From: Thermoanaerobaculia bacterium
Lineage (GTDB): Bacteria; Acidobacteriota; Thermoanaerobaculia; Gp7-AA8
Direction of reading: 5' to 3'
Length of the DNA: 36,938 bases
Assembly: GCA_017883215.1 (NCBI GenBank)
Contig: JADGOA010000002.1
Location: 1 to 36,938 of the forward strand
Shown: positions 26,601-30,363 of the stretch, piece by piece
Numbering within the stretch: position 1 is the stretch's first letter
Layout of the letters: each line of letters opens with the position of its first letter
Notes under the pieces: generated by a model
The model's input: only the letters and a program-made list of their open reading frames with translations
Database searches by the model: none
Told to the model about the DNA's origin: nothing
Translations under genes and position numbers: made by a program

Positions 26601-26616
26601 TATGACCGAAGTCATT
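26601..26616. promoter_or_regulatory. Candidate Crp/Fnr-family operator (TATGA-N6-TCATT), site 1
   Basis: tATGAccgaagTCATt. It is followed after exactly 21 nt by TAGCCT (26638-26643) and lies 37 nt upstream of the relic gene ATG 26653. The geometry matches the sites at 27993 and 30297. Confidence 0.5.
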
Positions 26617-26652
26617 CCGGAGCAGTTTGTGCAGACGTAGCCTAGGTCGACA

Positions 26653-27060
26653 ATGGAAACACTCCGTGGAGTCGGCATTGAACGGGTCAAGGCGACGGTC
26701 TGGGGGGCATTTTTCACTGCGATCCTGGGCGTTCTGATCGTCGTCGGCTCCCGCAATCTCGACCATTTCGACGCCGCCCTGGTCGGTTATACGTTTGCAG
26801 TCCTGTTCGCCACTTTCGCCATCACCTACAGATACACAATGTGGCTGCAACGGTCGCCGACGGTGTTGTAGGGAGGCGTGGCTGGCAGGTGTTCTTCAAG
26901 CGCCGCTTCGCCGCCCGCAACGCCGGCCACTGGGTCCAGCGCGTTGTCGCGGACTTTGCCCTGAACCGCTTCATCGCCTACCGCGGCGGCTTTCGCTGGC
27001 TCGCCCACTGGCTGATCATGTGGGGTTGCGTCCTCGCGGCGGCCATCACGTTCCCGCAGG
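26653..27060 (+). pseudogene. Frameshifted and truncated polytopic membrane protein (relic)
   Basis: Frame 1 reads METLRGVG...[14 protein letters not shown] and stops at 26871. The sequence continues in another frame as [12 protein letters not shown]...[21 protein letters not shown]. Coding sense is lost at about 27055, where it abuts molybdoenzyme fragments. Confidence 0.6.
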
Positions 27061-27070
27061 AGCAGCGAAC

Positions 27071-27753
27071 AAGAAGGCTTTCGGGATCGACCGCTGCGCC
27101 AACCCGTGAGACGACATCCTCGGCGCCGAAGCCGTCTGGATCGCCGGGTCGAACACGGCCGAGTGCTCTCCGATCACGACGAATTACGTCTGGCAGGCGC
27201 GCGAGGCCGGCGGCAAGGTCATCGTTCAGGATCCGCGGATCACGCCGATCGCCAGGACGGCCGACATTTTTCTGCCCGTCAAGCCGGGGCGTGACGTCGC
27301 GCTGTTCAACGGCATCCTCCACCTGATGATCCAGAACGACTGGCTCGACCACGACTTCATCGAAAACCACACCTCCGGCTTCGATGCCGTTGCCGCCCAC
27401 GTCAGGGACTGGACGCCGAAGCGGACGGCGGAGGTCACGGGCGTTGCCGAGAAGCAGATCCGCGCGGCGGCCGAGGTGTGGGGAACCAGGAGGAAGACGA
27501 AGGAGTGGTGGCGCAGGTCGAAGGCCGCGTCATCAAGATCAACAAGGCCGTGGAGGCGCCGGGCGACGCCACCCAGGACTGGCGCATCATCCAGGACATC
27601 GCCGCCGCGTTAGGGCGCAGTCACGGCATGACGTTCCAGAGTCCGCGCGAGATCTTCGACGAGCTGCGCGTCGCCTCGAAAGGCGGCATTGCCGATTACT
27701 TCGGGATCACGTACGAAAAGATCGAGGCCCAGAACGGAGTCTTCTGGCCATGA
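27071..27753 (+). pseudogene. NarB/NasA-type molybdopterin nitrate reductase, multiply deleted relic
   Basis: Three collinear fragments survive.
- Fragment 1: [12 protein letters not shown], ending in an in-frame TGA at 27107.
- Fragment 2 (27110-27484): [22 protein letters not shown]...[36 protein letters not shown]...[38 protein letters not shown].
- Fragment 3, in a different frame (about 27490-27753): [41 protein letters not shown]...[16 protein letters not shown].

The N-terminal Fe-S domain, the central part and the C-terminal dinucleotide-binding domain are all missing. Confidence 0.8.
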
Positions 27754-27797
27754 ACTTTATGGTCCGTGATGCTGAGAAGCTGTGCAGAAATCGAATT

Positions 27798-27872
27798 CAC
27801 CACAGAGGCACAGAGAGCACAGAGACTGTTCCTCCGCCTTTCTTTCTCTGTGTCCTCTGTGTCTCTGTCGTG
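27798..27872. repeat. Imperfect hairpin with CACAGAG-type arms
   Basis: caccacagaggcacagagagcacagagac (27798-27826) pairs with tctctgtgtcctctgtgtctctgtcgtg (27845-27872). About 24 of 28 positions are complementary. Confidence 0.85.
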
Positions 27873-27939
27873 AAAGAGAGGTTGGTATCGCCACGCTCCC
27901 GATTTCGGCACAGCCTCTCAGGATGACTGGGAAGACTGT

Positions 27940-27983
27940 GGTCCGCGATCCGCGGTCCGCGGTCCCCTACTCGCCACTCGCTG
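27940..27983. repeat. Tandem heptamers GGTCCGC (x4, degenerate) followed by TACTCGC/CACTCGC
   Basis: ggtccgc gatccgc ggtccgc ggtcccc tactcgc cactcgc t. The GGTCCGC unit recurs at 32114-32145. Confidence 0.85.
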
Positions 27984-27992
27984 TCCCCAAGA

Positions 27993-28008
27993 CATGACCT
28001 AAATCATG
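27993..28008. promoter_or_regulatory. Candidate Crp/Fnr-family operator (CATGA-N6-TCATG), site 2, upstream of narK
   Basis: Perfect palindrome CATGAcctaaaTCATG. It is followed after 21 nt by TAATCT (28030-28035). The narK ATG is at 28054. Confidence 0.6.
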
Positions 28009-28053
28009 GTGCCGTCACTTCCCGCCGCGTAATCTGCGATCGGAGCGTTTGTC

Positions 28054-29250
28054 ATGACAGAAGCTCACAAACCGACTGGGAATGCGCTGCAATTGACGCT
28101 GGCGACCGGCGCATTCGCGGTCTGCTTCGCCATCTTCGGATCCGTGTCGGCAATGATGCCGATCATCAAAAAGAACCTCCACCTCGACCCCGTGCAGGTC
28201 AGCGTCGCCCTCGCTCTGCCCGTCCTCCTCGGCAGCCTCGGCCGCATTCCACTCGGCATGATGGCCGACCGTTTCGGCGGCCGCGTCGTCTTCTCCGCGG
28301 TCATGGCCTGTTCGATCGTCCCGGCCGTTTTCATGGGCTGGCTCTCGAGCTACTCGCAGCTGCTCACGTTCGGATTTCTGATCGGCATCGCCCTGGCCAG
28401 CTTTTCGGTGGGCGTGTCGTTCGTCAGCCGGTGGTATCCGCCGGAGAGACAGGGAACGGCGCTCGGCATCTACGGCGCAGGGAACATCGGCCAGTCGCTG
28501 GCGGCCTTCGGAGCGCCGGTGGTGGCAGCGGCGTGGGGGTTCCGCTGGGGCTTCTGGCTTTTCGGCATCCTGACGTTGGTGTGGTTGCTCTTCTTCATTG
28601 CCAAAGCCGAGAATCCGGTCGGCACGCGTCCCAAGTCGTTCGCCGACACGATCGCTCCGTTGAAGGAGAAGAAGAGCTGGGTTCTGAGCCTCTACTACTT
28701 CCTCACCTTCGGCGGCTTCGTGGCAATGAGCGTTTACTTGCCGACGCTTCTCACCGACGTCTTCAGGCTCACGCCGCAGAATGCGGGCCTGCGCACGGCA
28801 GGATTCGTAGTTCTGGCGACGACTTTGCGGCCGGTCGGCGGAAAGCTCGCGGATCGGCTGGGCGGCAATCGCATCCTGTATTTCGTCTTCCCGCTCACGG
28901 CGGCGATGGCCCTTCTCCTGGCCGCCCCACCGCACATGATCACCTTCACGATCGGCGCGCTCGGAATGGCGGCTGCGATCGGGCTCGGCAACGGCGCAGT
29001 GTTCAAGCTGGTCCCGCAGTTCTTCCCCAACACCGTCGGCAGCGTCACCGGGCTGGTGGGCGCCGCCGGTGGGCTGGGCGGCTTCTTCCCGCCGCTGGTG
29101 CTCGGGATCATTCGGAAAGAGACCGGAACGTTCAGCGCCGGATTCGTCCTGCTCGCCGCATTTGCACTGTTTTGCCTGCTGGTGCTGTGGCTCAGCGGAC
29201 GAAGTGAGAGTCGCGAGCGCGAATCACAGGTGGAGCGAATGGCCGCATAG
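28054..29250 (+). CDS. narK: MFS nitrate/nitrite transporter (NNP/NarK family)
   Basis: 398 aa with 12 TM helices. Motifs: [15 protein letters not shown] (MFS loop 2-3) and nitrate-signature-like YGAGNIGQS and [15 protein letters not shown]. Confidence 0.85.
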
Positions 29251-29290
29251 CAATCGGACGGGCGAGCGAGACACGAAATCAGCGAAAGCT

Positions 29291-29446
29291 GCGGACGTGC
29301 TGCTCCGCGGCGGTAGTGGAGAGCGGACATTCCTGTCCGTCGGCTTACGAGCGGCCCTGGCTGGCGCAAGCAATCGGCGATGCACGGCCGCCCGGCGGCC
29401 GGACGCGAATGTCCGGCCGCTGCGGACAGGAATGTCCGCTCTCCAC
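29291..29446. repeat. Composite palindromic element built from CGGAC...GTCCG hairpins
   Basis: Perfect 24-bp inverted repeat: gtggagagcggacattcctgtccg (29316-29339) pairs with cggacaggaatgtccgctctccac (29423-29446). Each arm is itself a hairpin. An inner hairpin ggccggac-gcgaat-gtccggcc lies at 29398-29419. The element sits between the convergent narK and regulator stops. Confidence 0.95.
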
Positions 29447-29453
29447 ATACCGG

Positions 29454-30143
29454 TCACTCCAGGGTAATGGCCTTGAGGTCCTCGACCACCGGAATGAAGA
29501 ATCCGCTCTTGTCGGTGAGGACGATGTTGTCCTTCTGCCAGCGGCTCATCAGACGGATCGCGGTCTCCAGCGTGGTCGCGATGAGGTCCGCGATCTCCTG
29601 ACGGGAGAGCGTGAGCGGGACGAAGATGCCGGTGCCACGCGGCACGCCGACGCGATCGCCCAGCGTCAGAAAGAGACGGGCGGCGCGGTACTCCGCTGAT
29701 CCGGTCATGTCCGCCATCCGCTTGTTGACCATCATCAGGCGATAGGTGAGCCCGGCCAGCATGCGGCGCATCATTTCCGGCCGGTGTTCGAGCAGCGAGA
29801 AGAACTCACGCTCGGGCATCGAAAGGATGCTCGACGGCTCGAGGGCCACCGCGCTGGCCGGGAAAGGCCGGCGCTCGAAGACGGCCACCGCCCCGACGGG
29901 CTCGCCAGGACCGAGGATCTCGAGAATGACGTCGCGACCGCCGGCGGACTTGACGATCTTGGCCCGCCCCAGCACGACGAAATGAATCCGGTCGGCGGGA
30001 TCGCCCTCGTGGAAGATCGTCTCGCCTTTCTCGTATCCGCGCATCCGGCAAAGCGGTGCGAGCTCCTCGCGGTCCTCTTTGCGAACGGCGGAGAGAAGCG
30101 GAATGGAGTCAAAAGGGATGGGAATGGTCGATTCGATGGACAT
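29454..30143 (-). CDS. Crp/Fnr-family transcriptional regulator (no FNR-type Cys cluster)
   Basis: cNMP-binding-like beta-barrel (GETIFHEGDPADRIHFVVLGRAKIV) and a C-terminal HTH (SRQEIADLIATTLETAIRLMSRW). The N-terminus lacks the FNR Cys cluster. The track ORF starts at TTG 30167, but ATG 30143 is preferred. Confidence 0.85.
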   Translation of the reverse strand: MSIESTIPIPFDSIPLLSAVRKEDREELAPLCRMRGYEKGETIFHEGDPADRIHFVVLGRAKIVKSAGGRDVILEILGPGEPVGAVAVFERRPFPASAVALEPSSILSMPEREFFSLLEHRPEMMRRMLAGLTYRLMMVNKRMADMTGSAEYRAARLFLTLGDRVGVPRGTGIFVPLTLSRQEIADLIATTLETAIRLMSRWQKDNIVLTDKSGFFIPVVEDLKAITLE

Positions 30144-30296
30144 CAATACATTTAACCTCGACGGCAACCAGAATCATCCCTGCCGCCGACAGCAGCAATC
30201 TTGATTGCACAGAGCGGTCCCGCCCCTTGCGCGACGAAGAACCGGGCGGCGTATGCCGGACACAGCGCGAGAAACCGACGGATATCCGCCGTGCTT

Positions 30297-30312
30297 CATG
30301 ACAAAAATCATG
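30297..30312. promoter_or_regulatory. Candidate Crp/Fnr-family operator (CATGA-N6-TCATG), site 3, upstream of ric
   Basis: Perfect palindrome CATGAcaaaaaTCATG. It is followed after 21 nt by TACATT (30334-30339). GGAGG is at 30354 and the ric ATG at 30364. Confidence 0.6.
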
Positions 30313-30363
30313 GTTGGCCTTCGTCACGCCCGGTACATTGCGTTGCAACGACGGAGGAAATCA

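Follow-up and report, generated by a model that had tools for sequence, protein, structure and literature searches.

Introduction

The locus described here raises the question of whether a Crp/Fnr-family protein and three palindromes spread around its gene belong together as regulator and operators and, if so, which signal they would serve. It lies in a stretch of 36,938 nucleotides from a Thermoanaerobaculia bacterium of the phylum Acidobacteriota (assembly GCA_017883215.1, contig JADGOA010000002.1), called the window throughout. The regulator gene (29454-30143, minus strand) encodes 229 residues and stands between a narK-like gene for an MFS nitrate/nitrite transporter (28054-29250, plus strand) and ric (30364-31158, plus strand), which encodes a di-iron iron-sulfur repair protein of the ytfE/scdA type. 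Each palindrome, of the form ATGA-N6-TCAT, is followed at one and the same distance by a hexamer resembling a -10 element. We propose, with a probability of about 0.78, that the three palindromes are operators of this Crp/Fnr protein, which would act on them as a class II activator of a nitrogen oxide (N-oxide) and nitrosative-stress regulon; the sequence comparisons reported below establish the site sequences, their spacing and conservation, the target genes, the co-variation of helix and motif and the absence of the Cys cluster and of the residues contacting cyclic AMP, and from these we infer that the protein binds the sites and activates from them, where transcription would start and what the signal would be.

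Results

Three palindromes with a common promoter geometry

Site 1 (ATGACCGAAGTCAT, 26602-26615, plus strand), an exact ATGAC-N4-GTCAT, is the putative operator of the promoter of a decayed membrane/nitrate-reductase operon. Site 2 (ATGACCTAAATCAT, 27994-28007, plus strand) is that of the narK promoter, and site 3 (ATGACAAAAATCAT, 30298-30311, plus strand), lying 155 bp upstream of the divergent regulator gene, that of the ric-ywiC promoter. The 16-bp forms of the sites are tATGAccgaagTCATt (26601-26616), cATGAcctaaaTCATg (27993-28008) and cATGAcaaaaaTCATg (30297-30312), followed after 21 nt by the -10-like hexamers TAGCCT (26638-26643), TAATCT (28030-28035) and TACATT (30334-30339) respectively. 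Measured from TCAT, the gap to the TAnnnT hexamer is exactly 22 nt at all three sites, and 29.5 bp separate the centre of each palindrome from the first base of the hexamer downstream. An earlier note, prepared from the letters of the window, had described this arrangement, and its coordinates and spacing proved exact in each case. Its assignment of the core to the Crp/Fnr type is also supported, as the sites fit a 5-4-5 template with a TGA/TCA core; their refined consensus is ATGAC-N4-(G/A)TCAT. All three palindromes are free of variants in four independent metagenome runs.

The window has eight copies of the bare 8-base core, ATGA-N6-TCAT, where dinucleotide shuffles give 0.35; the core is commoner in coding DNA than the shuffles predict, five copies lying inside genes (nuoN 2578, nuoM 3792, nuoL 6537, narK 28153 and an M28 peptidase gene 32167). 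The earlier note had expected such a palindrome well under once by chance, an estimate that holds for the full architecture but was optimistic for the core; likewise, the one extra copy it listed (CATGAACAGGTTCATG, 6536-6551, in nuoL) is present, but the coding copies were under-counted. All five lack the combination of C at position 5 with G or A at position 10, and no -10 hexamer stands behind any of them. A search of both strands of the 36.9 kb with a joint model, which allows at most two mismatches to ATGACNNNNGTCAT and asks for TANNNT at +21 to +23, retrieved the three sites and nothing else.

The 14-mer ATGAACAGGTTCAT is identical in nuoL (6537-6550) and in the M28 peptidase gene (32167-32180) and encodes MNLF on the minus strand in both; we read it as a coincidence of codon usage and not as a pair of operators. 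A near-consensus sequence, ATGACGCCCGTCAC (15849-15862), situated close to a CTACTCG heptamer array, was set aside, as it has no -10 hexamer at +21 to +23 in either direction. The palindrome contains ATG on both strands, so that first-start calling of open reading frames (ORFs) begins ORFs within the operator and yields spurious N-terminal extensions such as MTNIIP..., MTSVIR... and MTRVIP... (L001 12579, L043 4965, L009 2898 and L011 2983, the L numbers designating the related loci described below).

Recurrence of palindrome and spacing beside orthologous regulators

Homologues of the regulator numbered 1598 at E <= 1e-10, the closest (60-86% identical) coming from Acidobacteriota/Thermoanaerobaculia metagenome-assembled genomes (MAGs) and from soil, peat and permafrost metagenomes; the locus itself is present in more than 20 public metagenome runs. 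Orthologous loci from Acidobacteriota, Thermoanaerobaculia MAGs and soil metagenomes came to 39 after dereplication, and motif enrichment was measured on these 286 kb of neighbourhoods. The consensus of the relatives is ATGAC-N4-GTCAT. Its exact form was counted 22 times, where a first-order Markov model predicts 0.15, and 59 palindromes built from permuted half-sites gave a maximum of 3 and a median of 0 in the same loci. Palindrome and spacing recur together beside orthologous regulators in dozens of independent contigs, the site usually lying no more than 350 bp from the regulator gene.

The spacing was examined in 29 dereplicated sites, each oriented towards its gene. In 16 of them TANNNT begins exactly 22 nt after TCAT, and in 19 it begins 21-23 nt after it. 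Only one more TANNNT, at +25, turned up among the scanned offsets of 12-33, and the majority of the other sites have xAxxxT at +21 or +22. TACATT at +22 is common to many orthologous promoters. Counted from the 16-bp site, the distance to position 2 of the -10 element is 22 bp, a spacing described as exclusive to class II CRP promoters (PMC10187061), and Fnr/Dnr sites are known at -39.5 to -43.5 (PMC5398030). No sigma-70 consensus promoter with a -35 element was detected in 26000-32200, and the predicted leaders are short, with GGAG-type ribosome-binding sites. The 29.5 bp from centre to hexamer, the retention of the spacing in orthologous promoters and the lack of a -35 element are consistent with the class II geometry proposed in the earlier note, and the sites would lie at the ideal class II distance (-41.5) from the predicted transcription starts (near 26650, 28042 and 30346).

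A sigma-54 promoter was rejected, as no GG-N10-GC element follows the palindromes, and so was a role of site 3 in the promoter of the divergent regulator gene, as no -10 hexamer stands at +22 on the minus strand. Among orthologues the start codon of the regulator lies anywhere from 0 to about 230 bp from the site, and therefore autoregulation, if any, does not proceed by class II geometry.

Genes downstream of the sites

Sites lie upstream of ric or ywiC in L001-L004, L016, L037, L038, L041-L049, L051, L054, L058 and L062, upstream of narK in L045, L047 and L058, with the sequence ATGACGAAAGTCAT, and upstream of an intact membrane/NasC operon in L001, L006, L052 and L054, the sites in L006 and L052 being intergenic. 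Further sites precede the gene for a 759-residue qNor in L043 (Pfam NorB_cytochrome_c-like and COX1), that for a ScdA_N-DUF1858-NnrS fusion in L009 and a ScdA_N-DUF1858 gene in L011. The qNor and NnrS targets were seen in relatives, and neither gene occurs in the window.

In the window, site 1 precedes a relic pseudogene (26654-27760, plus strand) composed of QmoC/NarI-like and NasC-like fragments with frameshifts and a stop codon. Comparison by tblastn with the intact L001 proteins matched the relic to residues ~1-152 of a 381-residue membrane protein and to residues ~172-337 and 479-566 of a 740-residue NasC-like molybdopterin subunit, in agreement with the earlier placing of site 1 upstream of a relic membrane/nitrate-reductase gene. 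Independent metagenome contigs run collinear with the relic, one of them with 2 differences in 1.4 kb, and the relic is therefore genuine and no product of the assembly. The L001 site at 12566, which has the same flanks and precedes the intact operon, is the orthologue of site 1.

The intact operon (L001 6696-12579, minus strand; L006 6763-12652, plus strand; L052 6019-10652, plus strand) encodes a membrane subunit of the QmoC/NarI-like kind, NasC-like, 4Fe-4S and Rieske subunits, and a transporter of the TDT/TehA type. The membrane protein has C-terminal Cys motifs, and the NasC-like subunit, of the molybdenum bis-pyranopterin guanine dinucleotide (Mo-bisPGD) type, has no signal and scores 792 bits against a cut-off of 1100. 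This architecture is unlike those of the standard Nas, Nar and Nap systems, and the operon may encode a distinct membrane-linked reductase of nitrate (or another oxyanion) in Acidobacteriota. In some loci nrfA (Cytochrom_C552) and an nrfH-like ORF recognised by eye adjoin the regulator and qNor genes (L041 6571-8496, L043 8937-10625), and the L041 region behind the site at 5833 may hold a decayed qNor remnant, by analogy with L043.

The regulator and its recognition helix

A tblastn search returned 29454-30143 as the only Crp/Fnr homologue of the window, lying between sites 2 and 3 as had been noted. Its product contains the domains cNMP_binding (PF00027, 79.6 bits), HTH_Crp_2 (PF13545, 43.8 bits) and Crp (PF00325, 32.1 bits), all above their cut-offs, and belongs to the Crp/Fnr superfamily. 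No NCBIfam family model reaches its cut-off. The scores for the CRP model NF008732 (54.7 bits, cut-off 266), the NtcA model TIGR03697 (48.3 bits, cut-off 245), the FixK model (46 bits, cut-off 300) and the FNR model NF008365 (37.4 bits, cut-off 228) set the protein outside the CRP, NtcA and FNR families, and the motif is also unlike the GTA-N8-TAC of NtcA.

Because the protein has a single cysteine (C32), it lacks an FNR-type [4Fe-4S] cluster, as the earlier note had stated. C32 is kept in orthologues of at least 60% identity, but outside the close orthologues there is no conserved His, Cys or Met. In the alignment with Mycobacterium tuberculosis CRP (MtbCRP), the segment GELSIF..PRTSSA corresponds to GAVAVF..PFPASA, and the residues contacting cyclic AMP (cAMP) are absent. 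An AlphaFold model with a mean predicted local distance difference test score (pLDDT) of 72 and a low-confidence beta-roll gave MtbCRP, GlxR and NtcA as top Foldseek matches, which confirm the family fold only; the DNR structure in the PDB matches the regulator at E = 1e-9, more weakly than actinobacterial CRP. Some orthologues bear the label 'nitrogen oxide reductase regulator' from the KEGG Orthology-based JGI pipeline.

The recognition helix was located by alignment to MtbCRP at T190-T-L-E-T-A-I-R197 (TTLETAIR; codons 29553-29576, minus strand) and is invariant in orthologues. L192, E193, I196 and R197 correspond in this alignment to R180, E181, G184 and R185 of CRP, numbered from the RETVGR motif (PMC10187061). 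The Glu and Arg that contact TGA are retained, the G-contacting Arg180 is replaced by Leu, and Ile stands where CRP has Gly184. This Ile occupies the position that we take to be equivalent to Ser212 of FNR, a residue said, in the work of Bell and colleagues of 1989 and of Spiro and colleagues of 1990, to discriminate the outer T of TTGA; our literature search for papers on FNR Ser212/Val208 specificity found none.

Co-variation of helix and motif

Regulators of the Ile184 type (LE..IR, VE..IR) have ATGA-N6-TCAT within 400 bp of the gene in 24 of 32 dereplicated loci and TTGA in none. Paralogues from Thermoanaerobaculia with the helix RETVTR, which has Arg180, are flanked by GTGAC-N4-GTCAC. A Syntrophobacteria (deltaproteobacterial) relative with the helix PETLSR (Pro180/Ser184), has the site TTGACnnnnGTCAA, which is the published HcpR1 motif (PMC1274295). 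In Planctomycetia relatives (34-39% identity), with the helix TTVETAIR or ETVIR, the sites read ctATGA-N6-TCATa, followed after 22 nt by TAAGAT (L014 4843; L017 1203 and 1939; L068 1784 and 2546; L069 1192). Residue 184 co-varies with the outer base, Ile going with ATGA and Ser with TTGA, and Arg180 goes with GTGA; this links the palindrome to the protein family of the regulator and not to an unrelated factor. The Planctomycetia sites precede a hemerythrin-domain gene and a gene for a PAS-GGDEF diguanylate cyclase, which hints that the same sensor family is linked there to cyclic di-GMP (c-di-GMP) signalling.

Neighbouring genes and repeats

The narK-like product matches Pfam MFS_1, and its best NCBIfam model, TIGR00886 (NarK family), gives 229.9 bits, below the cut-off of 311.7. 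The ric product exceeds the cut-off of TIGR03652 (221.6 bits against 204.7) and contains the Pfam domains ScdA_N and Hemerythrin; its C-terminal tail, encoded at the 3' end of the gene (31100-31158), is rich in His and Cys (GNGNGHDHGKCGCGCSH) and lies outside residues 10-232 of 264 matched by TIGR03652. The ywiC-like gene (~31115-31957, plus strand, by ORF reading) encodes a membrane protein (PF14256, 78.9 bits). Its frame begins about 40 nt before the ric stop codon and overlaps it, and the two genes are therefore read as one operon; the overlap suggests translational coupling.

On the other side of the locus lies a gene for a 170-residue protein with the Pfam domains PAS and HTH_8 (26061-26573, minus strand). 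This short form lacks an ATPase module and has short homologues in L037 and L040; in L003 (6768-8102) and L016 the syntenic gene encodes a full PAS / sigma-54 AAA+ / HTH_8 enhancer-binding protein. Between this gene and site 1, 6 nt upstream of the latter, an inverted repeat GTCAC-N8-GTGAC (26579-26596) was observed, which is kept in L001 (GTCACagtggcgcGTGAC) and could be the operator of a second regulator.

Tandem heptamer arrays of the CTACTCG, CACTGCG, CACAGAG and GGTCCGC types and perfect inverted repeats of 24-25 nt occupy intergenic regions of the window (27740-28007, 29316-29481, 15882-15918, 23000-23036, 9758-9797, 10961-11000, 25442-25525, 31968-32084 and 32100-32136). At 27740-28007 and 29348-29481 the assembler word depth of four metagenome runs climbs from ~8x to 130-1300x, and the contigs are broken at these places. 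These elements are therefore dispersed and multi-copy, possibly resembling repetitive extragenic palindromes (REP) or miniature inverted-repeat transposable elements (MITE), or acting as terminator modules.

Discussion

Proposed mechanism and signal

In the mechanism that we favour, a dimer of the regulator would place its TTLETAIR recognition helices into the two ATGAC half-sites, with the centre of the site about 41.5 bp upstream of the transcription start, and would recruit RNA polymerase, by class II activation, to promoters whose -10 element is weak and which lack a -35 element. The regulon would comprise narK, ric-ywiC and the now-decayed membrane/NasC-type nitrate-reductase operon in this organism, and the intact reductase operon, qNor and the ScdA_N-NnrS fusion gene in relatives. 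Such a content matches the regulons of HcpR, DNR, NnrR, NsrR and NorR (PMC1274295), so that nitric oxide (NO) or a related N-oxide is, by analogy, the most likely signal; it would be sensed by means other than an Fe-S cluster or cAMP, possibly via haem as in DNR, NnrR and HcpR. As the targets in relatives form a classic NO/N-oxide regulon, the suggestion of a Dnr/NnrR-like sensor made in the earlier note is reasonable, although the protein is not a curated member of DNR, NnrR, FNR or CRP. The best reading of the sequence is a branch of the NO/N-oxide-responsive Crp/Fnr activators, HcpR/DNR/NnrR-like, with a new specificity.

Comparison with known systems

Rodionov et al. 2005 (PMC1274295) predicted the HcpR1 branch in deltaproteobacteria and cyanobacteria. 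It shares with the present system a Crp/Fnr regulator devoid of the Cys cluster, a palindrome of 5-4-5 form whose half-sites have the core TGAC (TTGACnnnnGTCAA), a local nitrosative-stress/N-oxide regulon including nar and hemerythrin-like genes, and a regulator gene adjoining its targets. It differs in the outer base, which is T in HcpR1 and A here (ATGAC), in the helix, which is P/S-E-T-L-S-R in HcpR1-like relatives (L015) and L-E-T-A-I-R here, and in phylum, the present protein being acidobacterial and ~35% identical to a deltaproteobacterial HcpR1-like relative. Published HcpR sites are the HcpR1 motif, TGTGA-N6-TCACA in Desulfovibrio and GTAACnnnnGTTAC for HcpR2 (PMC1274295). Given the different outer base, the protein is not assigned to HcpR; in addition, no hcp gene was recognised among the annotated genes of the window or of L001-L064, in which no search was aimed at hcp.

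DNR of Pseudomonas and NnrR of alphaproteobacteria also lack the FNR Cys cluster and, from positions near -41.5, activate genes of denitrification as well as nor and nnrS (PMC5398030, PMC1274295). However, DNR reads TTGATnnnnATCAA and NnrR TTGCGnnnnCGCAA (TTGCG-N4-CGCAA) (PMC1274295), and the present ATGAC-N4-GTCAT is neither an FNR box nor the NnrR site. As regards the regulon, NO reductase or nnrS genes follow the sites in relatives (L043, L009), as expected of this group. The class II promoters of E. coli FNR and CRP resemble those proposed here in the predicted binding of a dimeric helix-turn-helix protein to a TGA-N6-TCA core centred at -41.5, in the 22 bp up to position 2 of the -10 element (PMC10187061) and in the equivalents of Glu181 and Arg185. 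In contrast to them, the regulator has no [4Fe-4S] Cys ligands, FPAS replaces the cAMP-contacting RTSS of MtbCRP, Leu stands for Arg180 and Ile for CRP Gly184 and, presumably, FNR Ser212; correspondingly, CRP sites read TGTGA-N6-TCACA (GTGA) and FNR sites TTGAT-N4-ATCAA, unlike ATGAC-N4-GTCAT. A further Crp/Fnr activator in nitrosative stress is NssR of Campylobacter jejuni, whose box (TTAACnnnnGTTAA) is a variant of the FNR-like type and whose specificity residues are altered (PMC1274295); its half-site, its residues A180/Q181 and its target, the globin gene cgb, differ from those described here.

In our literature search ATGA-N6-TCAT, ATGACnnnnGTCAT and their spelling variants were not found, matches to TGAN6TCA were all CRP sites of the form TGTGA-N6-TCACA, and no paper on an acidobacterial NO regulator was retrieved. 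Judged from its sequence, the system is very probably a known kind of switch, a Crp/Fnr class II activator, reading a DNA word that has no earlier description.

Alternative explanations

It might be argued that the Crp/Fnr protein binds the sites but senses oxygen or redox state, as FNR does, or nitrate/nitrite, and not NO. FNR classically controls narK and nitrate reductase, the Fnr regulon of Bacillus subtilis includes narK and ywiC (our literature search found no paper mentioning ywiC), and C32 is conserved in orthologues at least 60% identical. Nevertheless, a single cysteine makes [4Fe-4S] ligation impossible, the FNR model scores far below its cut-off, and the targets ric, qNor and NnrS are genes of NO-specific defence or detoxification, so that we consider this explanation unlikely.

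The palindromes could also be operators of a repressor encoded elsewhere, for instance a nitrite- or NO-sensitive one of the Rrf2/NsrR type. The regulon overlaps that of NsrR (ytfE/ric, narK-like transporters, nnrS, norB; PMC1274295), and ATG...CAT ends are also found in the NsrR consensus gATGyAT-N5-ATrCATc. NsrR is, however, a repressor of another fold, and its 6-5-6 operator overlaps core promoter elements, whereas the sites have the 5-4-5 architecture and TGA/TCA core of the Crp/Fnr template. They are held at -41.5 with respect to a -10 element and have no -35, both features typical of activator dependence; they abut a Crp/Fnr gene in most loci, and the identity of their outer base goes with that of the recognition helix in the neighbouring Crp/Fnr protein. 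A repressor of this type is therefore very improbable.

Still less credible is an assignment of the sites to the Fis-type PAS+HTH_8 protein. Such a gene, or one encoding the PAS-sigma54-HTH_8 form, adjoins the Crp/Fnr gene in the window and in L002, L003, L016, L037, L039 and L040, but many site-bearing loci have no such neighbour within reach (L006, L045, L048, L051, L052), the promoters have no -24/-12 element, and the motif, built on the Crp/Fnr template, changes together with the Crp/Fnr helix; the repeat GTCAC-N8-GTGAC at 26579-26596 is a better candidate for the PAS+HTH_8 protein. Finally, chance or codon-driven palindromes, or divergent start codons, might be suspected from the five coding core copies, 14 times the shuffle expectation, and from ORF callers placing starts inside the palindrome, but this is refuted by the excess of the exact motif in the relatives, a -10 spacing fixed across four unrelated target genes, the joint model with its three matches in the window, an in-frame stop 12 codons downstream of site 1 and the intergenic sites of L006 and L052.

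Several points weigh against the Crp/Fnr activator reading itself. The loci were collected by regulator homology, which makes the proximity of site and regulator partly a matter of construction, and a site within 400 bp is missing from seven orthologues with a helix of the IE..IR class. Site 1 serves a dead gene, and its present-day function is doubtful. No RNA run contains the locus, the runs found being DNA metagenome contigs only. The sensor-domain model, with pLDDT values of 33-54 over residues 61-90, is uninformative on the haem pocket, and the content of the regulon, taken by itself, fits a repressor of the Rrf2/NsrR type equally well.

Meaning for the Acidobacteriota and the Crp/Fnr family

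On a wider scale, an undescribed Crp/Fnr branch spanning phyla, with an Ile-set ATGA(C)-N4-(G)TCAT operator and the role of an N-oxide master switch, is a proposal for which we see the arguments as evenly balanced. We saw members of such a branch in Acidobacteriota and Planctomycetota, and possibly in Bacteroidota and Bdellovibrionota as well. The Ile at the position of FNR Ser212/CRP Gly184 may re-programme the operator to ATGA(C)-N4-(G)TCAT, and in Planctomycetia the branch may be wired instead to genes for hemerythrin and c-di-GMP synthesis.

Thermoanaerobaculia-type Acidobacteriota are widespread in soil, peat and permafrost, and none of them is genetically tractable. In these abundant, uncultured soil and permafrost bacteria the regulator could be the master NO/N-oxide switch, and its scope could extend over nitrate uptake, nitrate reduction, the reduction of NO by qNor to nitrous oxide (N2O) and Fe-S repair. 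The finding would leave the understanding of how such switches work unchanged, and is not conceptually surprising; it would add an entry to the Crp/Fnr recognition code, and an operator, its cognate regulator and the rule linking residue 184 to the outer base would make nitrate/NO/N2O regulons readable from MAGs.

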